A stretch of 64,000 nt of DNA, from sequence record OK428535.1. The stretch is one strand, 5' to 3'. Numbering within the stretch: position 1 is the stretch's first letter; the number at the start of each line of letters is the position of its first letter. This DNA is from Escherichia phage vB_EcoM_Lh1B. Below are positions 13,718 to 64,000 of this stretch, piece after piece. Position numbers and translations under genes: made by a program. The notes under the pieces are model-generated. The model was not told the DNA's origin, made no database searches, and saw only the letters and a list, made by a program, of their open reading frames with translations.

Positions 13718-13748
13718 TTATTACATCTCTTAAGGAGTATTATTTACA

Positions 13749-15419: not shown

Positions 15420-15426
15420 GTAATAC

Positions 15427-15460
15427 GGAGACCTTCGGGTCTCCTATTATTATTTTTTAT
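15427..15460 (+). terminator. rho-independent terminator (UUCG loop)
   Basis: GGAGACC-TTCG-GGTCTCC followed by T-rich run. Confidence 0.7.
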
Positions 15461-15484
15461 TCTATCGTGAAAAGGAGTATTAAA

Positions 15485-15751: not shown

Positions 15752-15785
15752 TTATTATAGAGTAGCTCTATAATGAGGTTCGAGC

Positions 15786-16088: not shown

Positions 16089-16098
16089 AAAAAGAAAA

Positions 16099-16150
16099 GG
16101 TACCTCTCCCCGAAGGGAGAGGTAAACCTTATTTCTTTTTCTTTTTTTTT
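16099..16150. terminator. bidirectional terminator between convergent genes
   Basis: ACCTCTCCC-CGAA-GGGAGAGGT flanked by an A-run upstream and T-run downstream. Confidence 0.65.
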
Positions 16151-18895: not shown

Positions 18896-18906
18896 TGGGG
18901 TCTCCG

Positions 18907-21097: not shown

Positions 21098-21625
21098 ATG
21101 GGATACCGTATAGATTTATCAAAAACCCCGAAACAGATTCTGGTTGAGAGAATCAATTACGTTTTTAAGTTATCGTATAGTGAAAATAACTACGAGTTTA
21201 ACCCACGNGGGGTGTGGCCGCNAACCNAAGNAGNGNGNCGCGNTAANGGTGTGGAGTNTAAAGTTGCGGNGCGCTTTGTAAATGGGGTACACGGCACTCA
21301 AGAGTTTTACCTGACTCGTGCGGACTTAAACAAGTTACTTAAAGACGTAACGGTTGAAGTCCCGAAGGGTGCGGCAGAATGGAGCCATGAATTAGTTCCG
21401 TATATTGTCGATGAGCTGGGTCTCCAGCTTGACACCTACGATATCATGGTTGAACCGATTACCCCAGAAATGGAATCGTATGAGGCGCGTTTAATCCCGC
21501 ACCATCTATCTTTCAAAGGCACGATTGCGATTACTTTTGTTGACCCAACTCCCCGTAAGCTGGCGCAGCTGGTAACTAAACGGGCACTCGACGGGTTTCG
21601 CCCAGGAGAATTTTTAAATGGCTAA
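21098..21625 (+). CDS. hypothetical protein (175 aa)
   Basis: ORF with Ns; overlaps the next start by 8 nt. Confidence 0.5.
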   Translation: MGYRIDLSKTPKQILVERINYVFKLSYSENNYEFNPXGVWPXTXXXXRXXGVEXKVAXRFVNGVHGTQEFYLTRADLNKLLKDVTVEVPKGAAEWSHELVPYIVDELGLQLDTYDIMVEPITPEMESYEARLIPHHLSFKGTIAITFVDPTPRKLAQLVTKRALDGFRPGEFLNG

Positions 21626-31291: not shown

Positions 31292-32056
31292 ATGTCAAAA
31301 CTCAATAAAGCAGCAACCAAAGAATGGCTTTCCGTACCTACCGCAGATGGTCAGTATCGCTACGTATTCACGTATGACGAAAATGACCTGACGGCAAAAG
31401 GTATTCCGCACATGTTAAGTCACAAACTGATTAACAGCGTGACCGGTGCCACCTTAGTAGGTTCCGGCGGAAGGACAATCTTTTGTGCCCCCAGTTGGGA
31501 TCAAACTGAACTGACCAAGAAAATGCTCGGTGAACTCCGGGCGGTTTCCGCACGTCTGTTCTTTAAGCTGATTGCCAGAAAACCGGCGCTATGGGATGCA
31601 TGGTCTCAACACAATCTCGAGGCATTGCGTGGGGAGTGTCTGAATTACGTATTGGTCGAAGAAGTGATTGATAACTTCTTCGCTAACGTGATGAAAACCG
31701 AACGACTGCGTAAGCCGAACACCGACGGTTATTCGTTTGTCTCCGTTAAGAGCAGCGAACTGATTCGGGGTGAGTTTGCAGGGCATGTCCTTTCGGTAAC
31801 TCGGAACCTGAGTTTCTTTGGCCAGCCTTTCAGTGAGCCAGTTGTTCAGGTAACTTATGATTTCCGTTTACCGTTTACTGTTCGGAATGAGTTTGACCCA
31901 GGTCAAGTTTCGTTGAAGTTTTTATATCCTCTCCAGTCATGGCCGTTATTGAAGAGGTTCTTAGCTGAGCCCCGTGTAGCTGCGGTGCTGCAAGCGTGGA
32001 TTGATTCATGGCCAGAAGGCATTGAGGAAAAATCGAAAACGCGAGTTGACTTCTAA
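31292..32056 (+). CDS. hypothetical protein (254 aa)
   Basis: ORF; terminator downstream. Confidence 0.55.
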   Translation: MSKLNKAATKEWLSVPTADGQYRYVFTYDENDLTAKGIPHMLSHKLINSVTGATLVGSGGRTIFCAPSWDQTELTKKMLGELRAVSARLFFKLIARKPALWDAWSQHNLEALRGECLNYVLVEEVIDNFFANVMKTERLRKPNTDGYSFVSVKSSELIRGEFAGHVLSVTRNLSFFGQPFSEPVVQVTYDFRLPFTVRNEFDPGQVSLKFLYPLQSWPLLKRFLAEPRVAAVLQAWIDSWPEGIEEKSKTRVDF

Positions 32057-43992: not shown

Positions 43993-44033
43993 AGGCTACC
44001 ACACGATCATATGTGTGGTAGCTTATTTTTTTG
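43993..44033 (+). terminator. rho-independent terminator
   Basis: GCTACCACAC...GTGTGGTAGC hairpin followed by TTATTTTTTTG. Confidence 0.65.
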
Positions 44034-44048
44034 TTTCTGGAGGCGTTA

Positions 44049-44588
44049 ATGGCAGACCGCTATCAGCCCGACCTAACACTCTCGTCGAAAGCGCTTGTCG
44101 TGGCGCTTATCAATCATGACAATAATCTGTCACTTACTGATAAAGAGATTGTGATTAGGGATATTGATGCGAACGCTTCACCAGACATCATCCCGAAGAA
44201 CACACAGGCAAGCGTGGCCAAAGCACGTAAGCCAAATGGGAAAACCGTGACAGTCTATTATGACCGGTTAAGTGCGTCTACCGTGCTAGACAGTTTTCAG
44301 CCGCTATTGGTGTCCTTAGACGGAACCGAAACGGACATTCAGCAAATTGCCAGTGTGATTAACGGTTACTGCGGTACAAACTTGTCAGCAGCAGACTTAC
44401 AGTCTGCGCCAATCGTGGTCAGCGACGATTTTACCCTGGTGAATATCACTGGCGATTCCCCAGCATGGCTTGGGACATTTATCGCAACCCTGTTTACCAA
44501 AAATGAGTACGTTCTTTCAACTGACACTGACACGGTGCTGTGTCTGGATGAGAACACTGTGCTCGTACTGACTGACGAGGAAGAGTAA
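44049..44588 (+). CDS. hypothetical protein (179 aa)
   Basis: GGAGG RBS before ATG 44049. Confidence 0.5.
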   Translation: MADRYQPDLTLSSKALVVALINHDNNLSLTDKEIVIRDIDANASPDIIPKNTQASVAKARKPNGKTVTVYYDRLSASTVLDSFQPLLVSLDGTETDIQQIASVINGYCGTNLSAADLQSAPIVVSDDFTLVNITGDSPAWLGTFIATLFTKNEYVLSTDTDTVLCLDENTVLVLTDEEE

Positions 44589-45073
44589 TGGCCAGCCCAG
44601 TTAAAAAGCAAACATTTGAGAGCTTACCATTTTATACCGATATCACCAACGTGAAAGATGGGATGTTCTTGTTTATCAAAGATGGGAAAGCGTATCAGTA
44701 CCCGCTCGAGATGTTGGGTGTCCAGAAGGTTGCTCAGGGTGTCGTTATTCGTGATGCGGCGTATGAGTTGGAAGCGGCAGCAGCCACTGATTGGTACCTA
44801 GGACTGTCGCAACCGGAAACCGATCTCACTATTAAACCTGATGGAGTATTGGGGGCATTTCGGTACACGCTCAACCTGACTATTCTTCAGGGAACGGGAG
44901 CCAACAAAATTAACTGGCCTTCCAACGTGAAGTTCCCCCATGATGCATACCCGGTGCTGTCGTACCAGAAAGGGAAATCGGACATGATTACCCTGACTAC
45001 AATCGACGGCGGTTACACCTGGAAAGGTGGCGTTAGTGGAACAGGATATACAGAATGGGTAGAAACTCCTTAA
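44588..45073 (+). CDS. hypothetical protein (161 aa)
   Basis: ATG overlaps upstream stop; operon with the large downstream gene. Confidence 0.5.
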   Translation: MASPVKKQTFESLPFYTDITNVKDGMFLFIKDGKAYQYPLEMLGVQKVAQGVVIRDAAYELEAAAATDWYLGLSQPETDLTIKPDGVLGAFRYTLNLTILQGTGANKINWPSNVKFPHDAYPVLSYQKGKSDMITLTTIDGGYTWKGGVSGTGYTEWVETP

Positions 45074-48072
45074 TCGCAGTACGGACAGGGATTAACTACG
45101 CACTGTCGCTGGCTTACGGACATCAGGACTTTGTTCGTCGAAACACCGGCTTAACTAACGACGCCCACAATGACCATTATCTGATTAACCCAGAAGGGGT
45201 GCTATCTAATAACCGGCATTTCATTGCTGACTCCATGGCAGTGTATCAACCTAATGGTGACGCCACCACAGAAGGTCAATCGTTGCTGATTATTGGCTAC
45301 TGTCACATGTACATTGCTACCAAAAACCAGATGTGGTTAGATGCGGCGATTCATGCATGGGAAGCGTACGCTACCTACTATTACGCAGGTCAGGCCATTC
45401 CCGATTCACCACAACGTTGGATTTGTAACTGGCTAGTTAACGGTAAAGAGCCAGTGCTGGCAGACTATCCGGTGCATCCGACCGAGCCAACCCACGGTGG
45501 TTATAAGTGTGTACCGGTAACGTTTACGAACGGGCGTTGCCAGATACCCCAAGGCGCACCATTCTTTGGTGAATATCTGAACAATTTCTTTTCTGCGCAT
45601 CGTGGCCATCCTACTTGGGGTGCGGTTAATGCCGACGTACAGAAAATTAAGGAATCGGAAGACGGGTTAATTGACTGGTCTAAAGTCCCTGATTACTTAA
45701 TCGTCAATCCAGAGAAACCTTACGATGTAAAAGCGTGGGTGGACTGGAACACGATGCTAAACGACCCAACCGGATATACACCAATATGGGGCGGTTCTAC
45801 CTCGAAAGGTCCGCGGTACGAACCTGACTGGTTTGTTGTGTGGACGGGTGAGAAGGTTCAAGACGGCGATGTCATCGAATCCGGTTTACCTGATGCCCAG
45901 AAAGGAACCGTACAATTAAAGGACACTAGTATTAACGGTGTGTATTTGATTAACTACGCTTCCCAGGTACCTGTAGAGCACGGCGGATATTTGTTTGACC
46001 GCAATGAGCCGTGGCACAACCGTCCGGTTCATACCCCGTTAAAAGGGTCTGTTAACCAGATGGGTAACGCGGCAGATGCGGAAGTGTGGTTTATTGATGC
46101 CTGTTATCTGCTCTGGCGTATCACAGGTGAACCGCGCTATAAAGCCGCATTAGACTCCGTGTTCTATACAGCGCACGAGTACACGTATATCGATGCGAAG
46201 GACAAGTTTTTCCGTCGTTCTAAGCTAGCCGAAACACCATTTACAGATGGTATCTCGTACGACTATAAATACCCCAGCACCGTTGAGGTCGCTTACAGTC
46301 GTGATGAAAATGGTGATATTGTGTTCCGTTCTGAGGAAGCTGTGCAGAACTTTATGGAACAGCAAGCCGTGCGTTTCAGGATAAACAGTCAATCGAAGTT
46401 ACGTGTGACATATGGCGGTGTTTGTGACAACGGTGATGCACTTGCGTGTAAAGTGATGGTGGATATTAACCCCGTCAAAGCGGATACTGAAGAAGTAAAC
46501 TGGTACGGCTGTACGCTCCCGGGATCAACATCGATGGAAGTAGAACAGCATGACATCGATTTAGGGCATCTGGCCAGAATGACCAATCCGGCCAACGGCG
46601 AAGATTACATCATTGCCGATGCGCGAGCATGTTCGGACTACGGTGGGTGTACGTGGCAGGAGAAGTTTGAGAACAACATTTACGATGGTCGTTCAGGGAC
46701 AATCGTAGAAGCGTTATTCCCGAACGACGATGCGGGTTTCATTATCGGTTTCTGGTTAACCGATGCCGGTGTTGCACCCCCACAGTCAATTGTCTATCGT
46801 GCCGATGCTGATTTCAACTTCCGTTTCGAAGATACCGACAAGTGGCGTTGGTGGTGGATGTTGCCCGCGACTAACGGGGAATGGAAACAGGTTATTATTC
46901 GCCCTGAAGACGCAACACTCTCGGGCTATCAACCTGACCACGATACCGACGTCGAACCAAAACCGGCTGCGCCAAACTATACAACTATCGATCAGGTAAC
47001 CATACTGCCCGATTCGGCTGTGGAGAATGCGCACTTTAGCTGGTATTGCGTAAACGATGTTCCGCCCCTGTTTAATGCAGACGACGGTTGGACGTTAACG
47101 TTCCGTATTGTAATTCGGGGAGGTTCTGCATTTACGGGTAAGGTGGGCGATTGTACGATAAAAGATTACCGTCTTGACTCGCTCGCGTATTGTCCAGGTA
47201 CGATACCGTTCTCGAACATTTATTCGGAAGGAACGTATCAGCTAGGTGCATGGCACGGGATGCCGTATCCCGGCTATCAGTATCCGTTTATGTACACCAT
47301 ACACACCGATGATCGCTACAAAGACTGGCTCTTAAATCAGATTCGGTTTATGCACGATTCACAAACCAACTACCAAACGCAGATAGGTGAGTTAGGTCCA
47401 GGTTGTGCGGCGTATATTTGGAACCGTTGGGATAACTACTCTTACGGCCCGGCAGATACGTGGACAACGTTCCATTGGGGCGATGGACATCCGTGGGCAG
47501 GTTATCAGCCGCGCGCGTATAACGCCGCTGCGCGTTGTTGGTACGAATTAGTTGTGCGTGGTAAAGAGGTTCCACCTGAGCTAGTAGTGTACGTTGAAAA
47601 TTGGGCTAAGTGGCTCGTAGGGTTCTTAGACCGCTTTGACAACCACACCCCGAATGAATTCCCTACGGCACCAAATAAACCGGTATGGGTAGAGAATGAT
47701 TTCACAGCACATATGTGTGCGCTCTGGATAGCAGGCAGTGCTTATGCGGCAATGGCCGGCTGTACAGTGGAAGGGTTGAGCCGTATTATGGATATGGGGA
47801 TGAAGGAGATGGGTGACAACTTCACCGTCACCGACATTCCAGGAAAAGCCATTAACGGTGCCTGGTCTCCATGGGCAAATCCCACCACGGATAACGGTCA
47901 GGCTTTTGGGTTTTATACTGGAGAAGCGATGCGTGCAATCGGGTTGTATCTCCTCTATAAAGAACACGGCGCAGGACATGATATTTATCGTGACTTGGCA
48001 ATCCCCGACCACACAACAGCCTCGCTCGATATAACGTTTACTATCCCAGACGATCCGCTCGAAACTAATTAA
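45055..48072 (+). CDS. large Trp/Tyr/Gly-rich protein (1005 aa), possible virion or tail-associated protein
   Basis: 3-kb ORF coupled to two upstream genes; terminator downstream; function not recognisable. Confidence 0.6.
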   Translation: MGRNSLIAVRTGINYALSLAYGHQDFVRRNTGLTNDAHNDHYLINPEGVLSNNRHFIADSMAVYQPNGDATTEGQSLLIIGYCHMYIATKNQMWLDAAIHAWEAYATYYYAGQAIPDSPQRWICNWLVNGKEPVLADYPVHPTEPTHGGYKCVPVTFTNGRCQIPQGAPFFGEYLNNFFSAHRGHPTWGAVNADVQKIKESEDGLIDWSKVPDYLIVNPEKPYDVKAWVDWNTMLNDPTGYTPIWGGSTSKGPRYEPDWFVVWTGEKVQDGDVIESGLPDAQKGTVQLKDTSINGVYLINYASQVPVEHGGYLFDRNEPWHNRPVHTPLKGSVNQMGNAADAEVWFIDACYLLWRITGEPRYKAALDSVFYTAHEYTYIDAKDKFFRRSKLAETPFTDGISYDYKYPSTVEVAYSRDENGDIVFRSEEAVQNFMEQQAVRFRINSQSKLRVTYGGVCDNGDALACKVMVDINPVKADTEEVNWYGCTLPGSTSMEVEQHDIDLGHLARMTNPANGEDYIIADARACSDYGGCTWQEKFENNIYDGRSGTIVEALFPNDDAGFIIGFWLTDAGVAPPQSIVYRADADFNFRFEDTDKWRWWWMLPATNGEWKQVIIRPEDATLSGYQPDHDTDVEPKPAAPNYTTIDQVTILPDSAVENAHFSWYCVNDVPPLFNADDGWTLTFRIVIRGGSAFTGKVGDCTIKDYRLDSLAYCPGTIPFSNIYSEGTYQLGAWHGMPYPGYQYPFMYTIHTDDRYKDWLLNQIRFMHDSQTNYQTQIGELGPGCAAYIWNRWDNYSYGPADTWTTFHWGDGHPWAGYQPRAYNAAARCWYELVVRGKEVPPELVVYVENWAKWLVGFLDRFDNHTPNEFPTAPNKPVWVENDFTAHMCALWIAGSAYAAMAGCTVEGLSRIMDMGMKEMGDNFTVTDIPGKAINGAWSPWANPTTDNGQAFGFYTGEAMRAIGLYLLYKEHGAGHDIYRDLAIPDHTTASLDITFTIPDDPLETN

Positions 48073-53643: not shown

Positions 53644-54441
53644 ATGTCTTTTACTTCAAAACAGAATCTGCTAAAACTCATCAACGAAGAGAATAAGATA
53701 AGCCCACCGCTTACCTTTGACGATGTTGATATCGGACTGCCGGAGGTTGTGTCAGTAGACGGTCGTGATTCGGAGGTAGTCCTTACCTCGAAGATGCGCG
53801 GTGATGAAGGTACGCAAGTGATTGTGGACTACCATCGTCGTCCATTAGAGGACTACCTTAAAGGCGATGTTGCCTTTGGAGACGAGGACGTGCAAACCAC
53901 GCACGACTTACTCGCGGCGATTAACGAGCGTTTTAATCTGTCTATCTTACCTGAGGATATCGAAGATAACCCCATTGATGGACAGACGCACACAGTCGTT
54001 GCTGTTGAAACTTCCCACGAGTGGCGAAGTCAAGCGGTCATCGAGCTGAAACCTGCTACACCTCTGGCAGAAGTAGTAACCAATACAGAGTTGAGCGGTC
54101 TTCTGTACCCGGATCACCAGGACATCCAGTTGGGTCAGGCGTATATCTATTCGCGTGACATCGATTGTAGCCACATCTCTCGTTTCCTGAGCCTCTTAGC
54201 GGTCGGTATCGAGGTAGATGACACGGCGTTGGCAATCGAACTCAACAAATGTGTTCCTGAGATTTGGGTAGCTGAAGATACCCCATCCCCGTATAACCTG
54301 CGTGGTGCCACTGTCGTATTCGACGGCGTACCTGCAGACTTGCCGGGAGCAAATACGGCGTTCGCGAAAGTCGTGTCAGTGCAACTGACCGATAAATGTA
54401 CGAACTTCCAGGGCAGCCTCAACCTACACTTTAACAACTAG
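53644..54441 (+). CDS. tandem-array paralogue P1 (265 aa), putative tail-fibre/receptor-binding-like family
   Basis: Shares N-terminal module and C-terminal L-x-L-H-F/Y-N motif with P2-P8; no obvious RBS. Confidence 0.6.
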   Translation: MSFTSKQNLLKLINEENKISPPLTFDDVDIGLPEVVSVDGRDSEVVLTSKMRGDEGTQVIVDYHRRPLEDYLKGDVAFGDEDVQTTHDLLAAINERFNLSILPEDIEDNPIDGQTHTVVAVETSHEWRSQAVIELKPATPLAEVVTNTELSGLLYPDHQDIQLGQAYIYSRDIDCSHISRFLSLLAVGIEVDDTALAIELNKCVPEIWVAEDTPSPYNLRGATVVFDGVPADLPGANTAFAKVVSVQLTDKCTNFQGSLNLHFNN

Positions 54442-54451
54442 GAGGGTATAG

Positions 54452-55294
54452 ATGTCTATTTACGATAAGCCCTCGAAAGAGATGTTGTTAGATGCTATTA
54501 ACCGACAGAACGGATTAACGGCCAATCCACTCACATGGGAGCAGGTTGCAACTGGCTTCCCTGAGTCTGTCCAAACGCCTGGCGCTGACCGGAATACGCG
54601 TGTGCTCTTATACGGGTTGAACGGCAAGGGCTACAAAGGCAACGTTACGCTCGAATACGACCGTATCGAAATGGAAATTCTGTTCAGGAACGTAATACCG
54701 GTAGTCGTTGCCGACCCGGTAAATAAACTCTCTGAGTTGTTGCCGTTTCTGAATGCGAAATACGGCTTGTCTTTAGTTGCCGACGATATCGTTGACCAGT
54801 CAGTAAAAGATTTGGGAGAAAGCTGGTTAATCGATGTGACTATTAAGCCTGGTTGCTTGGCCTGGCAAGGTGGTTTCCGTTTACGCTTTGCGAAGTTCTT
54901 CCCGAACTTGGCGGATGTGGTGACGGATGTTGACCTCAGCGCAATTATCGCGCCGTTCGTGGTTGCTAGTAAACCACAGGCTGAGTATGTGGCGTATGGT
55001 TACGATTGGACTGAACTGCAAAAACAGTTCACTACCGATTGGGCTTACAACCGCGCAATCACCGCGGCGGATGTTGAATTGCTTAACGAAGTGGTGCCAT
55101 TAAAGTTTGCATATGTGACGGGGGCGACTGCGCAACCTGAACAAATTGCGCTTCAAGGTGCACGATATATGGGGATAACTTCAGTCACACCGAACGATAG
55201 TTACAACCCCGATTATCAGCGTGTGGCGATTATCAAGCTAGCTGCGGACAGCAACTACGCCGGTAATCTCATCCTTCACTATCTCCCGATATAA
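54452..55294 (+). CDS. tandem-array paralogue P2 (280 aa)
   Basis: N-terminal LLDAINRQN...ADRNT...G..G..YDR module; GGAGG RBS. Confidence 0.7.
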   Translation: MSIYDKPSKEMLLDAINRQNGLTANPLTWEQVATGFPESVQTPGADRNTRVLLYGLNGKGYKGNVTLEYDRIEMEILFRNVIPVVVADPVNKLSELLPFLNAKYGLSLVADDIVDQSVKDLGESWLIDVTIKPGCLAWQGGFRLRFAKFFPNLADVVTDVDLSAIIAPFVVASKPQAEYVAYGYDWTELQKQFTTDWAYNRAITAADVELLNEVVPLKFAYVTGATAQPEQIALQGARYMGITSVTPNDSYNPDYQRVAIIKLAADSNYAGNLILHYLPI

Positions 55295-55304
55295 GGATTT
55301 TGAC

Positions 55305-56150
55305 ATGCCACTTTTAGCCACTGCTGAAAAGATTATTATCGCGGAGGTTAACGTCGAAAACAATCTCGATTTAAAAGTCGAAGATGTGGTTTTCGGTGTC
55401 CCTGCGATTCCGACGTCTGACGAAGACCTGGCAAAAGCCAATGGTCATAACGCGATGGTGCGCATTCAGGCATTGGCCACCGCTAATGCTATCGGTGCCA
55501 CTACCGTGTATTACGATCGTGTTGACTTCGCAGACATGTTTACCGACCCAGACGGGATTCAACCTTTACGTGTTCCTGCACGTCTCGATGCTGTTTACCA
55601 GATGCATGACGTGGTCGGGTTAATTAACCAGTATTACGGTCTCAGTCTTAAACCTGCAGATGTGGTGAATACCGAAATCGACAGGAAGACATGGCGTGTG
55701 GATCTGATTGCCACGCCCACTTCTTTAGGTTGGATAGGGCAACAACAGGTACAGCTGTTACCAGGCGATGCGTTGCTTCCTGCAAACTTCGAACCCTTAA
55801 CAGTAACACCTTACGAGTATCCGTATTTTAACATCAAGGTCGGTCAAGGTGCAGTTTATTCGTATCCCTGGCGCTTTGATAATTTCGCGGAGGAATTTCA
55901 ACGACTAGGTGCTGCGATAACCGCAGAACGTCTGGCACAGATTCTCAAAACGGTCACCGGTGATAACTGGACAACGTACCGTAACCCAATCGACTTTAAC
56001 CTTCGTGAAGCCGTCGTCGTCTATAACGGGCGTAACAAAGCGGAATTACCAACCAACCCAGCAGTCGACAACGTGCTGATTGTGGAGCTGTCGTTGTACT
56101 GTCTGAATTTTGGCGGGCGTTTGTATTTGCACTACAACGACCCTGATTAA
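55305..56150 (+). CDS. tandem-array paralogue P3 (281 aa)
   Basis: Divergent family member (YYDRVDF, C-terminal LHYNDPD); AAGGA RBS. Confidence 0.65.
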   Translation: MPLLATAEKIIIAEVNVENNLDLKVEDVVFGVPAIPTSDEDLAKANGHNAMVRIQALATANAIGATTVYYDRVDFADMFTDPDGIQPLRVPARLDAVYQMHDVVGLINQYYGLSLKPADVVNTEIDRKTWRVDLIATPTSLGWIGQQQVQLLPGDALLPANFEPLTVTPYEYPYFNIKVGQGAVYSYPWRFDNFAEEFQRLGAAITAERLAQILKTVTGDNWTTYRNPIDFNLREAVVVYNGRNKAELPTNPAVDNVLIVELSLYCLNFGGRLYLHYNDPD

Positions 56151-56171
56151 TCCTGAGTAAAGGAAGTAAGA

Positions 56172-57083
56172 ATGAAACCTTTAAACAAAACGTCCGATCA
56201 GCTGGTTCTGGATTTTATTAATGAGAAAAACCCAGACGCAGAACTGGAACTTTCTAAAATAACGCTCGGCACACCGACCCCTATTATCGATGAAGGTGCC
56301 GATCGCAATACCAGCATGACCCTGACTGCGAAAAAGAACTCCGGGTACATCGGTACTCAGGACGTGACTTATAATCGCCTGGAAGGCGGTGCGCTGTTCC
56401 GNAACGTAACGGCATACCTCGACGTTAAACTGCCGAAAACCACCACAGACCTGCTGACGACCCTGAACACCCAATACGGATTGAAGCTGACCGAAGACGA
56501 TATCGTTCCGGCGGCTATTCCGGAAAATACCAACCCGCCGCTGACTAACCCGAACGATCCGGACCCAGCACCGGTTGACCATGTCATTACCTTCAAAGAA
56601 GACTGCTACGCTTATCTGGGCAGCATCCCGGTTAAAATCGGTGCTAAGCCTCAGGTTGGTGAACGTCTGAGTCTGGTGGTAACACAAACCAAGCTCGACG
56701 GCCTGGTTTACCCAGATGGTCCAAGCGAAGCGAAGGGTCAGGGCTACATCTACTCTTACGGTGTAGACTGCACAGCAATCGCAGCATTCCTGAAAGTACA
56801 GGCGAAAGGTGTTATCGCTGGCGACTCTGCATTCCCGGTTGAGCTGAATAAAGTTGTGCCGGAACTGTGGGTTGCATCTGATGAGCCTGCGGATTATAAC
56901 CTGAAAGGTGCTAACGTGTTGTACGTTGGTTCTACTACTGACGATGGCACTGCTTCAGGCGACGATCCTAAGAAACCGGTTGAAGGTGCAAACACTGCTT
57001 ACAACCAGGTTCTGCTGCTGCAGCTGGATGACACTCTGTGCACCAACTTCCAGGGCGTCATGTACCTGCACTTTAATGCCTAA
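56172..57083 (+). CDS. tandem-array paralogue P4 (303 aa), codon-optimised
   Basis: INEKNP...ADRNT...YNRLEGGALF and C-terminal YLHFNA; strong optimal-codon bias; terminator downstream. Confidence 0.7.
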   Translation: MKPLNKTSDQLVLDFINEKNPDAELELSKITLGTPTPIIDEGADRNTSMTLTAKKNSGYIGTQDVTYNRLEGGALFXNVTAYLDVKLPKTTTDLLTTLNTQYGLKLTEDDIVPAAIPENTNPPLTNPNDPDPAPVDHVITFKEDCYAYLGSIPVKIGAKPQVGERLSLVVTQTKLDGLVYPDGPSEAKGQGYIYSYGVDCTAIAAFLKVQAKGVIAGDSAFPVELNKVVPELWVASDEPADYNLKGANVLYVGSTTDDGTASGDDPKKPVEGANTAYNQVLLLQLDDTLCTNFQGVMYLHFNA

Positions 57084-57095
57084 TTAGGCCTCGCT

Positions 57096-57137
57096 GGGAG
57101 GAGGAAATCCTCCTCCTGGCTACTCCTTTCTTTTTTG
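57096..57137 (+). terminator. rho-independent terminator inside the paralogue array
   Basis: GGAGGAGG-AAAT-CCTCCTCC followed by T-rich run. Confidence 0.6.
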
Positions 57138-57152
57138 GCCGAGGAGGCTATT

Positions 57153-57992
57153 ATGGCTTTATATAGTCTGTCTCAGCGACAATATCTGTACGATGCGATT
57201 AATGCCGAAAACCCGGATGCTGTTCTACCGATGGGTTTAGACAATGCTATCATCGGTACGCCGAAAGCAATCACACCGACAGCAAGCGGTGCCAATACTG
57301 AGATTATCATTCGTGGTCGTCAAGGTCGTGGCTATATCGGTCCTCAGACGTTCCGTTATAAGCGCTTGTCGCTGAACGACTTATTTAAGAACATGACACC
57401 TCAGGTAACTGCACCGAATGCCTACGGTTGGTTGAACGTGGAGTCGAAACGTACTGCGTTTGCGCAGAACCTGAACGGTCGTTATGGATTAAACCTGGTT
57501 GCAGACGATATCCCAGAACAATACGTTTATCTGAACGTAAACAACACGATGCGTATTAACGCTAGCTGTATCCAATACACTGGCAGCATCACCTTTATGT
57601 CTATCCGGGGTAAGAATAGTCTCGAAGACCTCGTGGTAAACGACATCTTGTCGGCTTTGAACCACCCTGCAGCAGCAAGCACTGGTAAGAAATACATGGG
57701 CTTCTTGACGTACGGGGAAGACTTTACTGATGAAGTGCAGGTTATGGCCTCGTTTAAGAACGGGCGAATGGACGTAGGAAGTAACTTTGATTTGGGTTAC
57801 ACGTCCAATCTGATGGCCACATTGGTCGCACGTGGGGTACCGTCGTTTGATCCGACGAACTGCACAATTACCCGCTACAAAACGAGTGAGTTGGCGACCG
57901 CCAATAAAGCGTACGATAACGTATTGCTGATTACCGGCATTCAGAACGACCCGAAAGTAATCGGCGAGTGTATGTTGCACTACAACAACTAG
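57153..57992 (+). CDS. tandem-array paralogue P5 (279 aa)
   Basis: GAGGAGG RBS before ATG 57153; C-terminal MLHYNN. Confidence 0.7.
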   Translation: MALYSLSQRQYLYDAINAENPDAVLPMGLDNAIIGTPKAITPTASGANTEIIIRGRQGRGYIGPQTFRYKRLSLNDLFKNMTPQVTAPNAYGWLNVESKRTAFAQNLNGRYGLNLVADDIPEQYVYLNVNNTMRINASCIQYTGSITFMSIRGKNSLEDLVVNDILSALNHPAAASTGKKYMGFLTYGEDFTDEVQVMASFKNGRMDVGSNFDLGYTSNLMATLVARGVPSFDPTNCTITRYKTSELATANKAYDNVLLITGIQNDPKVIGECMLHYNN

Positions 57993-58002
57993 GAATTAGC
58001 GA

Positions 58003-58890
58003 ATGGCTATTTATCAACCTTCTAAAGACGTCCTGTTGGCAGCAGTGAACGCACAGAACTCGCTTGCTGTTAAGATGACTGACATCATCTGGTCCTCGCC
58101 AAAGGACATCCGTGGTACGGAGAAGGAAACGCTGACTAACCGTAACACGCAAATTAAAATTACGGCAGATGGGGTAACGGGCTCTACCTGGTCGGGTAAG
58201 AAAAATGTCTTCTACAACCGCATGAAGGTCGAAGACTTGTTAGTGTTGATTGGTGACACGTTGGCGATCGGCCCATCCAACGAAACCTTGTATGCGGCCA
58301 TTCCTGGACTGAACCAACGTTACGGTTTTGTTCTGGAAGAAGCTGACCTGCAGGACGCAGATATCGAATGGAACGGTGATAAGACCGAAGGTACTGTGCG
58401 TGTTGTTGCACATCCAGAGTCTATCGGTTGGGTTGGACAGGCGACATTTAAAGTCGTGAAAGGCGATGAGTCGTTAGTCTCTGCAGTCACCACTAACGTC
58501 CTGACCGGTCTGAAATACCCGAACGGTCAGATGGGTTCCGAAACCGTTACTGCGGTCATTGCAGAGGTTTATTCCTACCCGTACAACTTCACTAAGTACC
58601 GAGATGCTCTGCTGGCATACAAGCCGGGNATTCTGTCTGGNCAGCCGTTAACGGATATGGTTAACCTGCTGAAAGATATCACGGGTACTGCATGGGTAGC
58701 GACCACTTCCGCTTCCTACGGTTTGGCGGGCGCGGAGGTTATCAGCGTTGGTCTGAATGACCCTGTTGCAATGCCGACAAACGCGAAGTACAAGTATGCG
58801 CTGGTGTTGAAACTGCCTGTTACCTGTACCACCATCGTCGGAACGTTGTATCTCCAGTTCAACGATCTGGACGATCCAAGCGAGGTATAA
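58003..58890 (+). CDS. tandem-array paralogue P6 (295 aa)
   Basis: LLAAVNAQN...NRNT...YNRMKVEDLL; C-terminal YLQFND. Confidence 0.7.
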   Translation: MAIYQPSKDVLLAAVNAQNSLAVKMTDIIWSSPKDIRGTEKETLTNRNTQIKITADGVTGSTWSGKKNVFYNRMKVEDLLVLIGDTLAIGPSNETLYAAIPGLNQRYGFVLEEADLQDADIEWNGDKTEGTVRVVAHPESIGWVGQATFKVVKGDESLVSAVTTNVLTGLKYPNGQMGSETVTAVIAEVYSYPYNFTKYRDALLAYKPXILSXQPLTDMVNLLKDITGTAWVATTSASYGLAGAEVISVGLNDPVAMPTNAKYKYALVLKLPVTCTTIVGTLYLQFNDLDDPSEV

Positions 58891-58893
58891 TTG

Positions 58894-59721
58894 ATGATCA
58901 ACTATGCTAAGCCGTCAAACGAGTTGGTCTTTGACCTCATTAACCGGGATAACCCAAACCTACCTATTAAAGCGTCGCCGGCAAACTGCTACGTGGAGAA
59001 AGTGACGCAGGTTCCCGTTAATGCAGCTTCCAACAACCGCAATACGTCGGCACGCTTGCGCGGTATTCAGGGTTCCGGATTTCGAGACGCAATCACCGTT
59101 TACTACGACCGTGTGAACTTAGCGCGGTTATTGCCGTGGGGTCCTTCTGTCCAGGCGCAGTTCGTCACGTTTGACGCGCCCAACCTCCACTCAGCCTTTT
59201 CGGTGCTCTTGGATACTTACGGAGTAAACTTCTCCGCAATCGATATCCAAAACTACTCACTGTTTGGTGCCAATACCCCAAATTACACCAATACACAGAC
59301 CATTGCAGCGCTATCGACATCTCCGGCTTATATCGGTTCTGCGACGTTGCGTTATAACCGTGGTTTACCGGTACTAGACACTTCGGTGAAATCAGATGTC
59401 TTGAATGCGATTCAAGAGCCTATTTCACCGTCTCTCGGTAAGAAGTGTATTGATTTGTTGACGTACGGTATTGACTTTACCGCGTATAAAAACCTACTGA
59501 CAGTAGATGCTTCTGGCCTACCGCAGTGGGCTGGTTTGCGTAAGGTGTTGGATGACCTGGGTATTCCGAACTACGCGGGGCCACTGAACAGTAACACCGT
59601 TCAGGATGTGCCGACTTCCACCGCTCAGTTCGCTAACAAATCGTACGACCGCGTGGTTATCCAAACGGGCATCGATGAGGAAGGCGTGAAAGGCGTGGCG
59701 TACTACCACTATAACAGCTAA
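58894..59721 (+). CDS. tandem-array paralogue P7 (275 aa)
   Basis: DLINRDNP...NNRNT...YYDRVNLARLL; C-terminal YYHYNS; terminator downstream. Confidence 0.7.
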   Translation: MINYAKPSNELVFDLINRDNPNLPIKASPANCYVEKVTQVPVNAASNNRNTSARLRGIQGSGFRDAITVYYDRVNLARLLPWGPSVQAQFVTFDAPNLHSAFSVLLDTYGVNFSAIDIQNYSLFGANTPNYTNTQTIAALSTSPAYIGSATLRYNRGLPVLDTSVKSDVLNAIQEPISPSLGKKCIDLLTYGIDFTAYKNLLTVDASGLPQWAGLRKVLDDLGIPNYAGPLNSNTVQDVPTSTAQFANKSYDRVVIQTGIDEEGVKGVAYYHYNS

Positions 59722-59725: not shown

Positions 59726-59750
59726 AGGGGCTCTTCGGAGCCCCATCTTT
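59726..59750 (+). terminator. rho-independent terminator (UUCG loop)
   Basis: GGGGCTC-TTCG-GAGCCCC followed by ATCTTTTGG. Confidence 0.55.
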
Positions 59751-59768: not shown

Positions 59769-61181
59769 ATGCTATTTTACTCGAAGGAGTCGGCACTGCT
59801 TGTATACGACCAAGTCAATCGGGATAATCCTGATTTAGTTGTTAAGCTGACGCCGGCTATCGCTGCTTTAACCAGCGGCCCAACTTCAGTTACGTTAAAC
59901 CAGCGTAACACCAAAGCTGTTTTCACCGGGTATCCAGGGACAGGTGTACAAGGTAATGTTACCGTGTACTACGACCGGATTAACCTGGCCACTTTATTTA
60001 ATTTTGTGCCGACTGTGGCTATCAAAGATACAGTCTTAACGGTACGAGACGCGCTACCTGCAATAAACGACGCATTGGGGCTTACATTAGTTGCTTCTGA
60101 TTTGCAGTCACCTGACGCAAGTTTACCTAAACCGAGCGCTTCGCCGCAGACGTTGAAATTAAATATCTCAGGTAATTGCCCTGCGTTTACAGGCAGCTTA
60201 ACGATACGTTATACCGTCCCGAGTGGTGCAATTTACCCCGATTCTGGACCTGGCCCTAAAACGTTGCTGCAAGGTAACACTATCGCGGGTTATTTCGGAA
60301 CAACCACAATTGCAGAGTTGTTTACACACTCTCAACTTCTTAATGCCACTATATCGGCCGGTGCGTTACCACCGGTACATTCTGGTGCCGAAGGTTGGTA
60401 CAAGTTCTTTTACCAGGGTAGGGTTATTTACCTCCCGATTAGTCCTGTCGCTAGCTCCATCTCCTGGAATACGTTATATACAAACGGACTCGTTTACGGA
60501 ACAGACGATAATGGTAAATACCCTGCGGCGACGCCCGTTAACCAGGGACGCATCATTAGCTTTACAGGCGCAGACAACAAAAGGTTTTACTTCCGCGTTC
60601 GTCTACCTAGTGCCGGGAAAGACCCATACGTCAGCGGCACCCCAACTGCCGCTGAGTTAGCAGGTAGTGAGTTTGAGATGTTCAACTTTCTGTATAATGG
60701 AACGTGGGACAAACCGATTAACAGTTACTGGACGCTGTTCTGTTTATTGAAAGATACACTGAACACCAACGTCGCCAATCATCGCATGGCGACGTTGTCT
60801 GGAGCCAGTTGGACAAACTTAGGAAAATCATCGAGCGCAGGCAACTACTACTGGTTCCCGGTGCTAGAGTTGGTGGATAAGTCCACAGTTACCTTGGGTT
60901 TAGAAGATATCCATGGTGCGGTAGATTACAGTCTCCAACCGNNCAGNGTGTCCGCAGAAAANNCNTTTAGNCTCANNCCNTTGGTNCTCGGTAATCCAGA
61001 TACTACCGATTTCGAACCGGTAGTTGTTACTTCAGAAAACAGTTTCGCACNGCATCCGCCTGCTTTAATGCTGCCGAAGACAGTCGACTTCCAACCCATT
61101 GCGGCTACCGCTGAAATGTATACGCCACCCGACAAGACATCGTTAACGTCACTTAACGGTGAACTGGACGGCTTTAAGTAG
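59769..61181 (+). CDS. tandem-array paralogue P8 (470 aa): N-terminal family module plus GPGPK-motif distal domain
   Basis: YYDRINLATLF module, then YPDSGPGPKTLLQGN...GYFG domain shared with P10 and P11; Ns near 3' end. Confidence 0.7.
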   Translation: MLFYSKESALLVYDQVNRDNPDLVVKLTPAIAALTSGPTSVTLNQRNTKAVFTGYPGTGVQGNVTVYYDRINLATLFNFVPTVAIKDTVLTVRDALPAINDALGLTLVASDLQSPDASLPKPSASPQTLKLNISGNCPAFTGSLTIRYTVPSGAIYPDSGPGPKTLLQGNTIAGYFGTTTIAELFTHSQLLNATISAGALPPVHSGAEGWYKFFYQGRVIYLPISPVASSISWNTLYTNGLVYGTDDNGKYPAATPVNQGRIISFTGADNKRFYFRVRLPSAGKDPYVSGTPTAAELAGSEFEMFNFLYNGTWDKPINSYWTLFCLLKDTLNTNVANHRMATLSGASWTNLGKSSSAGNYYWFPVLELVDKSTVTLGLEDIHGAVDYSLQPXXVSAEXXFXLXXLXLGNPDTTDFEPVVVTSENSFAXHPPALMLPKTVDFQPIAATAEMYTPPDKTSLTSLNGELDGFK

Positions 61182-61192
61182 AGGTATCATCC

Positions 61193-62191
61193 ATGTCTTT
61201 TACTTTGCGTTGGAAAAATCCAAACGTAATCTCTACGGTAGTAAAAATCTACCGTGACGTTAAAGATATCACACCGAGCGCTTTGCCTGAACCGATTGCA
61301 ACGCTCTCAAATGGCGAGACAGAATGGCGTGATACCACCGCCGCACCAGGCGCAACCTATTATTACCTTCTGACGGTAACCGCCAACGGTAAAACAGTGG
61401 CATCGTCTAGCCAGAAATACACCATTGAGATAAAGCGTGGGATTGGCCCAATGACTATTCTAAACGGTAACGACCGTTTAGGGTTTATGGGTGCGGTTCC
61501 TTACGACGAACAATGGCTTCCGTCGCAAATGCCACCTGCATTTTTGGCGATGTTCCCTAATCTATTAACCGATCGTGTGGCGTTGTATAAATTTACCCGA
61601 AACGGGAAAATCTATTACATGCTATCTAACACGTCGCAGTTCCCGAATACGCCTGTGGACTGGGCTTCCCTCTATCAAGCTGGTTTAGTCTATGGTACGG
61701 GCGATGCTGGTCCAGAGAACGGCCATGGAACGCTACCGGCCACTCCACAAGACGCTAAGATAGTCCACAAAGGGGATACGTACATTATGCGTCTTCCTCG
61801 CGGCCTGACGACGTCTAGCGAGCCTCCTGCGTATCCTTTCGTAGCTGACTATAATGGGAAAACCCATGATGAAATCGCTTCTCTAACCAACCCGTGTGAG
61901 TATAACGATTTACTTTACACGATGGTTAACGAGGTGCCGAAGAAACAGCGTTGGGCTAACTGGGCAACGTACAGTTATAATTATCTGGGGCAGGGTACTT
62001 TGGGAACCTCGGCAACGTATTTCGGCGGTGGTGTTCTCTGTATGGAACACGACACCACGGAAGACCGTGTGCTCCATCGTGGTATTTTTAACAATGCCGG
62101 TGGAACACCCGTATCCGCGATTCAGCGTATAAACTATTTATCACCCACCACGAAAGGGCGTTACTACCCTATCTTTGAACTGGTTGAGTAA
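61193..62191 (+). CDS. tandem-array protein P9 (332 aa) with N-terminal FN3-like domain
   Basis: LRWKNP...IYRD...TYYYLLTVTANGK fits a fibronectin-III-like pattern; C-terminal YYPIFELVE parallels P8 WFPVLELVD. Confidence 0.65.
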   Translation: MSFTLRWKNPNVISTVVKIYRDVKDITPSALPEPIATLSNGETEWRDTTAAPGATYYYLLTVTANGKTVASSSQKYTIEIKRGIGPMTILNGNDRLGFMGAVPYDEQWLPSQMPPAFLAMFPNLLTDRVALYKFTRNGKIYYMLSNTSQFPNTPVDWASLYQAGLVYGTGDAGPENGHGTLPATPQDAKIVHKGDTYIMRLPRGLTTSSEPPAYPFVADYNGKTHDEIASLTNPCEYNDLLYTMVNEVPKKQRWANWATYSYNYLGQGTLGTSATYFGGGVLCMEHDTTEDRVLHRGIFNNAGGTPVSAIQRINYLSPTTKGRYYPIFELVE

Positions 62192-62200
62192 GGGGCAGTC

Positions 62201-63124
62201 ATGACTATACGGTTAAGCTGGCCGTCTCAAGCCAGTAAAGGTCTTACCGCGATTGAAATCTATCGCAAAGAAGGCTGGAACGCAACTATAGACGTTTACA
62301 ATCCAGGCACGCCCCACGCAACTTTATCTGGCAACGCGGTAGAGTTTGTAGATAATATCGATACCCTGACGAAGAATACAACCTATCGTTACTGGGTAGC
62401 TGCTGTAAAAGACAGTGAACGACTTATCGGCAATCCGATTACGCAAGGATTCTATCCGGACACCGGGCCGGGTCCGCAAACTATTTTGCGTGGTGACTGG
62501 GCTTCAGGTTATTTCGGTACAGTACCGAATACAGAGTTCTTTAATACAGCCGAGTTAAAACTCATGTTAACTGCGCAGCAGGGAAACATGTTTATCTACG
62601 ACCCTCAGGAATGGCACAAGTTTATTTTCCGTGGGCGAATTGTGTTCTTCCCAGCGTCGATGCATTCGAAAACCAACTCGGTACAAATGGCGTATCAGTA
62701 CGGTATGATGTACGGGACCGATGATGTCGGAAGTATTGTTCCGCTGGGAGCCACGGCCACCAAACAAGATTGTAAGGTCACGAAGGATGGTCGTACGTAC
62801 CGTATCCGGTTACCTTACGCAGTCCCGTACGATGCGACTCTCTCAGGACAGGATTACAACAACGGCGAATGGCGAAACACAATGGGCCGTTTGTATCCTG
62901 TCAGTGCACAGTTCCCAGCCCTTGGTCTTGGTGCCATCGATTCAATACCGGCGCAAGGTTCAACTTCCCAGCCTAACGAAACAGGTGCTGCTGCATTAGC
63001 CCCTTTATGGAGCAACAACATTTTCGCTTATGCGTACGGTTATGCGCCTATAGGGATTAGTAACACCTCAGGTGTCGGGAACTCGACCACGATGTTCTTT
63101 GCTTTTGAATTAGTCTTACCGTAA
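62201..63124 (+). CDS. tandem-array protein P10 (307 aa): FN3-like domain plus GPGPQ-motif domain
   Basis: LSWPS...IYRKEGW...TYRYWVAAV then FYPDTGPGPQTILRGDWASGYFG. Confidence 0.65.
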   Translation: MTIRLSWPSQASKGLTAIEIYRKEGWNATIDVYNPGTPHATLSGNAVEFVDNIDTLTKNTTYRYWVAAVKDSERLIGNPITQGFYPDTGPGPQTILRGDWASGYFGTVPNTEFFNTAELKLMLTAQQGNMFIYDPQEWHKFIFRGRIVFFPASMHSKTNSVQMAYQYGMMYGTDDVGSIVPLGATATKQDCKVTKDGRTYRIRLPYAVPYDATLSGQDYNNGEWRNTMGRLYPVSAQFPALGLGAIDSIPAQGSTSQPNETGAAALAPLWSNNIFAYAYGYAPIGISNTSGVGNSTTMFFAFELVLP

Positions 63125-63137
63125 CGGAGTAAAAGCC

Positions 63138-64000
63138 ATGGGGTTGTATACAGAACCTTCAATGGAACTGCTCTGCCAACAAATTGTGCGTGACAATCCC
63201 GGTTTAGCAGGAAAAATCACCGCTGACTCCATTGGGGTCAGGGGNGTTCCTGTTGCGAAAAACGTTAACGGACGAAACACACAGATTACGTTGGTAGGAA
63301 AACCCGGTAAAGGATTTGCTGGGGAAATAACGGTATATTACGACCGGTTGAATCTGGCCAGTCTATTTAAGTCTGGCCCAAATATGGTGAGTATTCCACG
63401 TAGCGNACAAACCCATGCGGAAGNGTTACCGGCGTTCAATGAATTGAACGGGTTNAACTTAACCGCGAGTGATATCACCAGTCCAAACGTTGCATTAATG
63501 AAATACGCTACGCCGGAAACTGTAACTCTGACGGCGCACGCTAACTCCTTGTGTTATACCGGGTCATGCAAGATGACCTATGTTTACGAACCGATTGCGA
63601 TGTATCCGAAGTCGGGTCCTGGGCCAAAAGGATTAATGGCTGGTAATGAGTTATACGGATTCTTTGGGCTGGTAAGCGCGGAAGAGTTATTCACATCTGA
63701 TGAAATGGTGTATGCCCTCTATAACGGCACCACCTGGCCTAACCGCTACGCTATCAAGTGGCTCAAATTCTTTCTGAATGGGGNGGTAGTGTTTGTTCCG
63801 ACCCGTGCGNTTTGCAACGTTACCTGGGCAGACCTGTACAACAAGGGTGCAATATTTGATTCCGGAGACGCAGGACCTCGCCCGAAGTCGACTTACACAC
63901 CTGTCGATGTTGAACAGTTGAAATACATGGTAAAACGGGATGATGAAGGAACGCATTATTTCAGAATGTCTATCCCGTATTACACCGAGAACGCCGCCGC
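63138..64000 (+). CDS. tandem-array paralogue P11 (partial, runs off window end): N-terminal module plus GPGPK-motif domain
   Basis: IVRDNPGL...GRNT...YYDRLNLASLF then YPKSGPGPKGLMAGN...GFFG; no stop within window. Confidence 0.65.
   Translation, partial: MGLYTEPSMELLCQQIVRDNPGLAGKITADSIGVRXVPVAKNVNGRNTQITLVGKPGKGFAGEITVYYDRLNLASLFKSGPNMVSIPRSXQTHAEXLPAFNELNGXNLTASDITSPNVALMKYATPETVTLTAHANSLCYTGSCKMTYVYEPIAMYPKSGPGPKGLMAGNELYGFFGLVSAEELFTSDEMVYALYNGTTWPNRYAIKWLKFFLNGXVVFVPTRAXCNVTWADLYNKGAIFDSGDAGPRPKSTYTPVDVEQLKYMVKRDDEGTHYFRMSIPYYTENAA

Follow-up and report, generated by a model that had tools for sequence, protein, structure and literature searches.

A shared GPGP-motif domain with a predicted C-type-lectin-like fold in the DUF7941-associated virion proteins of an SPN3US-like jumbo phage

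Proteins containing the domain DUF7941 have been studied in several jumbo phages, and the resulting views of where they sit on the virion differ. [quoted passage not shown] Carbohydrate-binding, GH or LRR domains are present in some of the Goslar DUF7941 proteins, and the same preprint proposed a role in host recognition for those with a carbohydrate-binding fusion, with the filaments anchored at the baseplate. In phiKZ, gp127 was located at the baseplate periphery with its N-terminal domain modelled next to gp139, and gp126–gp127 were fitted into nearby density. The related paralog family B of phage SPN3US, which uses flagella as its receptor, comprises about 20 genes. Here the evidence is in conflict, as SPN3US proteomics puts the family on tailless heads, whereas the structural work on phiKZ and Goslar places it, or proposes to place it, at the baseplate.

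The stretch of DNA analysed here (the window, 64 kb) comes from an SPN3US-like jumbo phage, and the region under study is 96% identical to SPN3US. Four genes at its end, P8–P11, are orthologues of SPN3US gp145–gp148 (97.8% amino acid identity between P8 and gp145), which have already been listed in family B (PMC5694885, Table 1). All features described below lie on the + strand. P8 (59769–61181; 470 aa) consists of a DUF7941 N-terminal domain, a domain that we name after its GPGP motif, and a proline-rich tail; it matches PHROG 3589 with an E-value of 1e-168. P9 (61193–62191; 332 aa) has an FN3-like N-terminus followed by a GPGP domain with a degenerate motif, and P10 (62201–63124; 307 aa) an FN3 domain followed by a GPGP domain. 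P11 (63138–64000) begins with a DUF7941 N-terminal domain, the motif and the start of the GPGP domain and is cut by the window end; its SPN3US orthologue, gp148, has 498 aa.

Upstream lies an array of seven full-length DUF7941 genes (53644–59721), assigned by Pfam, alignment and identities as the orthologues of gp138–144. They match Pfam DUF7941 over its full length (E 4e-87 and 7.5e-68), phiKZ gp127 (PDB 9xqd chain 0) is hit by a profile built from the array (E 2e-24), and their products are the presumed filament-forming partners of P8–P11. The distal array is built from a three-gene cassette that occurs three times and was duplicated as a unit (gp145–153, nine genes), each copy encoding one DUF7941–GPGP protein and two FN3–GPGP proteins. 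This layout of seven genes and three cassettes of three is kept across phage genera, including an Erwinia phage. P8 is separated from the last of the full-length DUF7941 genes by 47 nt, which contain a GC-rich hairpin, GGGGCTCTTCGGAGCCCC, followed by a T-run (59727–59744; a consensus match only), while the intergenic gaps within the distal array measure 9–13 nt. A scan for sigma-70 promoters gave matches at chance level. Between 53000 and 64000, neither the template repeat of a diversity-generating retroelement nor any direct repeat longer than 44 nt was found, and the direct repeats present are conserved coding motifs of the paralogues.

Just three sites in the window's + strand reading frames encode the tetrapeptide GPGP, and they occupy the equivalent position of P8 (IYPDSGPGPKTLLQGNTIAGYFG, 60231–60299), P10 (FYPDTGPGPQTILRGDWASGYFG, 62450–62518) and P11 (MYPKSGPGPKGLMAGNELYGFFG, starting MYPKSGPGP, 63600–63668). 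A degenerate version containing GIGP is found in P9 (GIGPMTILNGNDRLGFMG, 61439–61492). The motif, YP(D/K)(S/T)GPGP...G(Y/F)FG, opens a domain of about 225 residues in P8 (residues ~152–375, 60222–60893, recognised by its homology to the P10 domain), P10 (62444–63121, modelled and compared with PDB structures) and P11. Because BLASTP between the two architectures returns E-values of 1e-8 to 1e-19 (1.5e-19 for the P8 and P10 GPGP domains, compared through their SPN3US orthologues), we take the motif as the start of a homologous domain and not as a chance resemblance. P9 holds the domain as well, with gp146 matching gp147 at 4e-13 and gp145 at 2e-8; P9 also matches PHROG 1062 (E 1.6e-57). A first-pass annotation of this DNA had proposed a distinct domain with the GPGP motif common to P8, P10 and P11, and both the three sites and the BLASTP values bear this out. 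Its motif pattern was real but imprecise, since P8 starts with I and not F or M, P10 has GD instead of GN, and the degenerate copy in P9 was omitted. The domain had also been called Trp/Tyr-rich, which holds to a modest degree (8.0–10.5% W+Y versus 5.9% across 57 of the phage's remaining proteins). The invariant residues of the domain are Gly, Trp, Tyr, Lys, Gln and Arg.

The GPGP domain is absent from Pfam and NCBIfam, as judged from scans of 13, 24 and 60 family members. A PDB sequence search with P8, P10 and two family profiles returned no match to the domain, and searches with members and profiles found no sequence-profile tie to Lectin_C, FGE-sulfatase, DUF1566 or a solved structure. From a model of the P10 domain and its comparison with PDB structures, the fold is tentatively predicted to be C-type-lectin-like alpha/beta, of the kind that TvpA, Lcl, invasin and Mtd, binding proteins of bacteria and phages, make use of. 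Variation among orthologues is concentrated in the C-terminal third of this domain (P10 residues 211–297, 62831–63091), where 45% of positions vary among close orthologues versus 6–16% elsewhere in P10. The dN value is 0.054 in this third and 0.010–0.015 in the rest of P10. Positive selection was considered and rejected: with Nei–Gojobori dN/dS below 0.33 in every segment, selection is purifying overall, and dN rises locally in the C-terminal third of P10 only.

The N-terminal modules are of two kinds. In P8 (residues 1–150, 59769–60218) and P11 (63138–63587), Pfam identifies a DUF7941 (PF25613) N-terminal domain; P8 matches with an E-value of 1.3e-31 (110.6 bits) and gp148, the full-length orthologue of P11, with 103.3 bits against a gathering cut-off of 27, both over profile positions 1–153 of 276 only. 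Neither protein thus contains the complete DUF7941 module of N-terminal domain, linker and C-terminal domain, the C-terminal half being replaced by the GPGP domain. The idea that the GPGP domain is itself a diverged DUF7941 C-terminal domain was rejected, as hhalign against the DUF7941 array gave a probability of 0.15%. P9 and P10 do not match the DUF7941 Pfam model. The N-terminus of P10 (62201–62434) is predicted to form a seven-stranded beta-sandwich of ~78 residues that is superposable on FN3 structures, and that of P9 (61193–61426) is assigned by homology to the P10 family (gp146 versus gp153, residues 1–231, E 5e-13). These FN3 domains give no Pfam fn3 match at E<=1, and the FN3 family profile reaches the PDB 'Fn3-like protein' 3mpc at an E-value of only 0.076. 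At the junction, a short YPD motif is common to the GPGP domain and DUF7941.

P8 continues beyond the GPGP domain into a tail (60894–61178) of degenerate proline-containing repeats ending in LNGELDGFK (NGELDGF, 61155–61175), and its residues 437–470 align with positions 143–177 of the PHROG 4862 profile. The peptide NGEL(D/N)GF terminates gp145, gp148, gp151 and also gp160, an abundant short DUF7941 protein made of N-terminal domain and linker only. Two of the three counterparts in Erwinia phage Caitlin end alike (IGELDGFR and NGELDGFK), while C154 stops 14 residues earlier without the motif. The resemblance of the terminal peptide to the internal DUF7941 linker extends over only about five residues.

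The GPGP family comprises at least 2,037 protein clusters (E<=1e-3). Its larger relatives pair the domain with Kelch, Laminin_G_3, Big_6 and DUF285/BspA LRR modules; a 2,172-aa protein in a chimallivirus contig has eight copies, and another family member is encoded near a DUF7941 gene. Two of the three metagenomic contigs inspected are from chimalliviruses. The largest homologues carry the labels 'Gammaproteobacteria / Acholeplasmataceae MAG', and we rejected a bacterial origin for one of them, P0052, because its contig encodes chimallin and a PhuZ-like tubulin. In 128 phage records, homologues are named virion structural protein, hypothetical protein or glycosyl hydrolase, and none is named receptor-binding protein or tail fibre; the sole fibre name in BFVD is a poor match (E 2.5e-3, TM 0.26).

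Set against these results, the first-pass annotation was right that P9 and P10 begin with FN3 folds, by prediction for P10 and by homology for P9. The structure prediction that it had suggested for residues 150–300 of P8 and P10 was made for the P10 domain and tentatively gives a C-type-lectin-like fold. Its description of the four proteins as combinatorial fusions and not simple duplicates stands in part: they are modular fusions, because all four share one domain behind two different N-terminal modules, but the cassette has been duplicated three times as a unit. The view that they are extracellular binding proteins gains from the predicted folds, from the Kelch, laminin-G, Ig and LRR neighbours of the domain and from the Goslar preprint, which arrived independently at its proposal on host recognition. 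It loses from the published mass spectrometry, which puts gp145–148 in tailless heads and not in tails, and from the names of the homologues, none of which is that of a receptor-binding protein in the 128 records.

P8–P11 are low-copy virion proteins, and their modules, namely a DUF7941 N-terminal domain (P8, P11) or FN3 (P9, P10) and the shared GPGP domain, suggest that they act as ligand-binding accessory subunits of the chimallivirus DUF7941 filament system. We assign this reading a probability of about 0.5. They are probably the binding parts of these filaments because a shared, predicted lectin-like domain is joined to a filament-forming or fibronectin-type module.

Published SPN3US proteomics points to the head or neck as their location. 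Mass spectrometry of SPN3US detected gp145–148 in purified virions in three replicates, and gp138–154 were present in CsCl-purified tailless 255(am107) heads from two CsCl gradients. The head/WT ratios were 1.06–1.67 for gp138–154 (1.06–1.44 for gp145–148), compared with 1.39 for the major capsid protein and less than 0.07 for tail and baseplate proteins. PSM per kDa amount to 1.2, 1.2 and 1.6 for gp145, gp146 and gp147, and are thus roughly equal within cassette 1; the abundant family members are gp141, gp143 and gp160. One alternative is a baseplate-anchored 'DUF7941 fibre cloud' as in Goslar and phiKZ, in which case the SPN3US head signal would come from co-purifying, self-assembled filaments. 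The position of the phiKZ gp127 N-terminal domain near gp139 at the outer baseplate, with gp126–gp127 close by, speaks for it, as do two other proteins: gp237, a family B member, has the low ratio of a tail protein (0.06), and gp122 was seen in whole virions only, its orthologue in the window consisting of the DUF7941 N-terminal domain alone and adjoining the tail genes. However, 17 members stay in constant proportion to the capsid protein in particles devoid of tail and baseplate proteins, which would not be expected of random entanglement, and we consider this alternative unlikely.

The same capsid-like ratios would also suit proteins inside the head, packaged along with the DNA and then ejected into the host, their FN3 and lectin-like modules acting in the capsid or the infected cell. 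The tentative label that the SPN3US authors gave to family B, 'Head ejection?', implies such an internal location (PMC5694885, Table 1). Against this, the masses of the P8–P11 orthologues (50.8, 36.9, 33.7 and 54.6 kDa) correspond to full-length proteins that are not prohead protease substrates, phiKZ gp127 lies on the outer face of the baseplate, Goslar gp22 makes filaments of an external type, and other proteins have the same domain joined to Kelch, laminin-G, Ig and LRR modules. Moreover, FN3 and lectin-like folds typically belong to surface-exposed proteins. An internal role for P8–P11 appears doubtful. That the GPGP domain is an enzyme (a glycosyl hydrolase, or FGE/EgtB-like) degrading or modifying a host surface polymer is highly improbable: 'glycosyl hydrolase' is its name in the Proteus phage 7 and MET_P1_082_240 records, but we rejected this annotation, as no GH or other enzyme family was matched in Pfam/NCBIfam with 60 + 24 + 13 members, the invariant residues include neither conserved catalytic acids nor the Cys/His or acid pair expected of such enzymes, and the Goslar paper puts GH domains in other DUF7941 proteins.

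If P8–P11 are binding subunits of DUF7941 filaments, P8 and P11 would plug into head-to-tail filaments, made mostly of gp141, gp143 and gp160, by means of their N-terminal domain and linker-like terminal peptide; P8-type members keep both presumed filament interfaces. The variable C-terminal third of the lectin-like domain would then make contact with a structure on the host surface. P9 and P10, having no DUF7941 part, would probably be carried by the P8-type protein of the cassette to which they belong. More speculatively, and with little confidence, the filaments of SPN3US-like phages might form not a baseplate cloud but a network, perhaps a branching one, borne on the head or neck; P8-type tails, with two to four linker-like proline repeats and NGELDGF, might be multivalent junctions, and the cassettes heteromeric lectin-like tips catching the flagellum or another surface polymer, much as head filaments do in other flagellotropic phages. 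On this more speculative reading, the GPGP domain would be a novel and very extensive family of modules with which phages bind. For the 'fibre cloud' idea, gp145–153 are candidate binding subunits in a phage with an amber-mutant genetic system. As a large family with neither a curated entry nor a solved relative, the domain merits both curation and a structure.

The closest known system is DUF7941/family B itself (phiKZ gp126/gp127; Goslar gp22, gp23, gp86, gp92 and gp161), with which P8 and P11 share the DUF7941 N-terminal domain. Like Goslar gp86, gp92 and gp161, they have a DUF7941 module followed by a putative binding domain. In contrast, their appended domain differs from those of Goslar and has no entry in the curated libraries, the inserted GPGP domain of P8-type proteins is still followed by a terminal peptide like that of gp160, and P9 and P10 were placed in family B by PSI-BLAST yet lack any DUF7941 part. 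The location of gp145–148 differs too, with SPN3US proteomics putting them on heads and the preprint favouring a baseplate anchor.

C-type-lectin-fold domains (Bordetella phage Mtd, Treponema TvpA, the Legionella Lcl C-terminal domain, the invasin/intimin tip and Bdellovibrio fibre tips) have no detectable sequence kinship to the GPGP domain, whose predicted fold is tentatively likened to theirs, and the GPGP proteins have neither a diversity-generating retroelement nor a trimeric fibre shaft before the domain. An FN3 sandwich of ~78 residues that opens a minor virion protein recalls T4 Hoc and the Ig-like domains of tail and head decoration proteins, but in P9 and P10 it falls below the Pfam fn3 threshold and is fused to a lectin-like domain instead of standing in tandem. 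The flagellotropic phages phiCbK and 7-7-1 offer an analogy only, without sequence or structural kinship, and no image of SPN3US head fibres was found; SPN3US likewise uses flagella, and its DUF7941 proteins co-purify with heads. The Goslar preprint itself likens collar filaments to the capsid fibres of phage 7-7-1 (printed 7-1-1).

The window comes from a Seoulvirus, that is, an SPN3US-like jumbo chimallivirus. The region 59769–64000 is completely collinear with SPN3US at 96.3% identity, and its open reading frames P8 (59769–61181), P9 (61193–62191), P10 (62201–63124) and P11 (63138 onward, cut by the window end) are orthologous to gp145 (97.8% amino acid identity), gp146 (96.1%), gp147 (93.8%) and the first 287 residues of gp148 (98.9%), respectively. 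Seven full-length DUF7941 genes (gp138–144; 53644–59721) precede P8, and the SPN3US array runs on past the window end with gp149–153. The only sizeable gap in the array (47 nt) separates the last full-length DUF7941 gene from P8 and holds a GC-rich hairpin with a T-run after it (59727–59744), which could serve as a terminator or attenuator between two expression units. A total of 259 ambiguous bases are scattered over the window (e.g. 60942–61051 in the P8 tail and 63245–63810 in P11); they introduce X residues into the translations and leave the motifs discussed here unaffected. Two nested ORFs in other frames, 60223–60660 (+ strand, inside P8, 145 residues) and 62721–62999 (inside P10, 92 residues), showed no evidence of being genes.

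A first-pass annotation of the sequence had noticed a GPGP motif common to P8, P10 and P11. GPGP indeed occurs only three times in the + strand frames of the window, at the same place in each of these proteins. The surrounding 23-residue pattern holds as described, except that P8 begins with Ile and P10 reads GD instead of GN. P9 carries a degenerate copy (GIGPMTILNGNDRLGFMG) and clearly shares the domain with the P10 and P8 families: BLASTP of the SPN3US orthologues aligned gp146 with gp147 (4e-13) and with gp145 (2e-8), and PHROG 1062 spans P9 and P10 end to end. The motif was also said to be followed by Trp/Tyr-rich segments, which is only modestly true, since the W+Y content of the domain is 8–10.5% against a background of 5.9%. 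For P8 and for gp148 (used as the full-length counterpart of P11), Pfam detected DUF7941 (PF25613) over profile positions 1–153 of 276 only, corresponding to the N-terminal domain; the Pfam search gave no match in P9 or P10. The original observation is confirmed, and its interpretation as fusions of extracellular binding modules is partly supported.

The distal array consists of a three-gene cassette present three times. Gene A encodes a DUF7941 N-terminal domain, the GPGP domain and a tail, while genes B and C each encode an FN3 domain followed by the GPGP domain. Between cassettes, identities are 30–39% for A/A, 39–47% for B/B and 37–46% for C/C, compared with just 25–31% for B/C. An array of seven genes plus three cassettes is likewise present in Erwinia phage Caitlin. 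When 12370–19139 of the SPN3US sequence L001 is compared with 9704–16500 of the Caitlin sequence L009, cassette 1 is orthologous in the two phages, at 63–70% identity. Caitlin cassettes 2 and 3 have only about 30% identity to any SPN3US copy, which indicates that two of the three cassettes diverged or were replaced between host genera.

Within P10, variation is localised. Among close orthologues, 45% of positions in residues 211–297 are variable, compared with 6–16% elsewhere, and dN is 0.054 versus 0.010–0.015 (dN/dS 0.16). Across eight Seoulvirus genomes, dS over the whole of P10 (62201–63124) is 0.33–0.35, against 0.03–0.10 in P8, P9 and P11, which points to old alleles exchanged by recombination. 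Elsewhere in the window, 44031–45070 (orthologues of gp122 and gp123) has only 49% and 43% identity to SPN3US, with neighbours at 95–99%, and by this sequence comparison looks like a swapped module. The gp122 orthologue is a DUF7941 protein comprising the N-terminal domain alone (Pfam E 2.6e-18). Another replaced gene is the gp99 orthologue (31319–32005), with 41% amino acid identity to SPN3US gp99 inside a stretch that is 98–100% identical.

The GPGP domain modelled by itself gave a pLDDT of 77.5 and a pTM of 0.81, with one disordered loop. Structural comparison returned a weak but coherent list of C-type-lectin/FGE-fold proteins: an IgA peptidase domain (5.7), the Legionella Lcl C-terminal domain (5.6), Treponema TvpA (5.4), PvdO (4.8), invasin InvE (4.2), the Bdellovibrio fibre tip Bd2740 (4.1), Bordetella phage Mtd (3.5) and many animal C-type lectin domains (3–4). 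On this basis, the domain is predicted to have an alpha/beta, lectin-like fold and no beta-sandwich, an assignment that we regard as probable but not proven. An hhalign probability of 0.15% led us to reject divergence from the DUF7941 C-terminal domain, and no counterpart was found in Pfam, NCBIfam or the PDB.

Among 1.84 billion cluster representatives, a profile search retrieved 2,037 proteins at E<=1e-3, 1,505 of them at E<=1e-10. Many are FN3 + domain proteins of ~300 residues; others place the domain first, and some giants contain 2–8 tandem copies. Accessory modules include Kelch propellers, Laminin_G_3, bacterial Ig domains, DUF285/BspA LRR and DUF7941. The eight-copy protein (2,172 residues, with a BspA-type LRR, DUF285; 10001–16519 in metagenome contigs L005/L006) is listed by its sources as a surface protein of a bacterial MAG. 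Its gene neighbours encode chimallin and a PhuZ-like tubulin, which identifies the contig as a chimallivirus. Another member lies near a DUF7941 gene. Among phages in GenBank, 128 records contain the domain; most are from phages of Erwinia, Salmonella, Pseudomonas and Ralstonia, and we take these to be chimalliviruses. A Foldseek search of viral models gave relatives named 'virion structural protein' and no others. A stand-alone GPGP-type domain forms gp55 of Pectobacterium phage CB7 (L002 7953–8669), a non-chimallivirus (Vequintavirinae); this protein is encoded among replication genes, yet is annotated as an MS/MS-confirmed structural protein.

The A proteins terminate in ...NGEL(D/N)GF, the same peptide as the C-terminus of gp160, an abundant family member whose 175 residues comprise just the N-terminal domain and linker. 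In Caitlin, two of the three A proteins (C157 and C160) end likewise; C154, shorter by 14 residues, does not have the motif. The C-terminal end of PHROG 4862, a group of short DUF7941 proteins, aligns to P8 residues 437–470. In full-length members, the internal linker has an (E/K)L(S/D)G(L/F) core, which the peptide resembles over a short stretch. The pattern [RKQ]P[LIVM][LIVAM], picked after seeing the data, recurs two or three times in the tails, against an expectation of about 0.03.

A 2026 preprint on phage Goslar describes DUF7941, restricted to chimalliviruses, as an N-terminal domain, linker and C-terminal domain predicted to polymerise head-to-tail as each N-terminal domain receives the linker and C-terminal domain of the adjacent protomer; filaments form from purified gp22. 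P8 and P11 would keep both presumed interfaces, the acceptor N-terminal domain and the donor terminal peptide, and could therefore be incorporated into filaments that consist largely of the abundant members. In published data, PSM per kDa is 31 for gp160, 23 for gp141 and 11 for gp143; the portal has 3.9 and gp145–148 have 1.2–3.4. Both interfaces are missing from P9 and P10, whose conserved cassette position and similar abundance suggest that they may bind the A protein of their cassette. The part in contact with the host would be the lectin-like domain, whose C-terminal third is variable; the reported SPN3US receptor is the flagellum. We assign this overall reading a probability of about 0.5.

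The most useful lead is a conflict over where the family resides. In a 2023 SPN3US data set, wild-type virions and the tailless heads of 255(am107) both contained gp145–148, with normalised head/wild-type ratios of 1.35, 1.06, 1.44 and 1.18; the capsid protein gave 1.39 and every tail or baseplate protein less than 0.07. In contrast, the window array profile matches phiKZ gp127 (PDB 9xqd chain 0; E 2e-24), located in the outer baseplate where the gp139 band ends, and the gp122 gene lies directly upstream of those for tail proteins gp123 and gp124 (gp124 at 45055–48072), gp122 itself having been detected by published MS in whole virions only. The Goslar authors propose a 'fibre cloud' anchored at the baseplate that serves host recognition. 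This agrees with the phiKZ match and would require the head signal to come from co-purification; we consider it unlikely for these proteins. [quoted passage not shown] That the proteins are enzymes is highly improbable. Elsewhere in the window, the gp83 orthologue (21098–21622) is a short DUF7941 protein (profile positions 4–170, E 2.6e-12) whose gene sits between those of gp82 and gp84; published MS assigned gp82 and gp84 to the tail and gp83 itself to the head.

The genes and their family were already known: the SPN3US group defined 'paralog family B' (gp83, gp138–154, gp160/161 and gp237) by PSI-BLAST, with no function assigned. The GPGP lectin-like domain itself, the FN3–lectin architecture, the triplicated cassette and the shared terminal peptide were absent from the literature searched, and the Goslar preprint neither discusses SPN3US nor mentions FN3 or C-type lectins. 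Fusion of DUF7941 to binding domains has recently been described in that phage, where three proteins carry DUF7941 followed by carbohydrate-binding, GH or LRR domains, and SPN3US gp160 is comparable to Goslar gp23.
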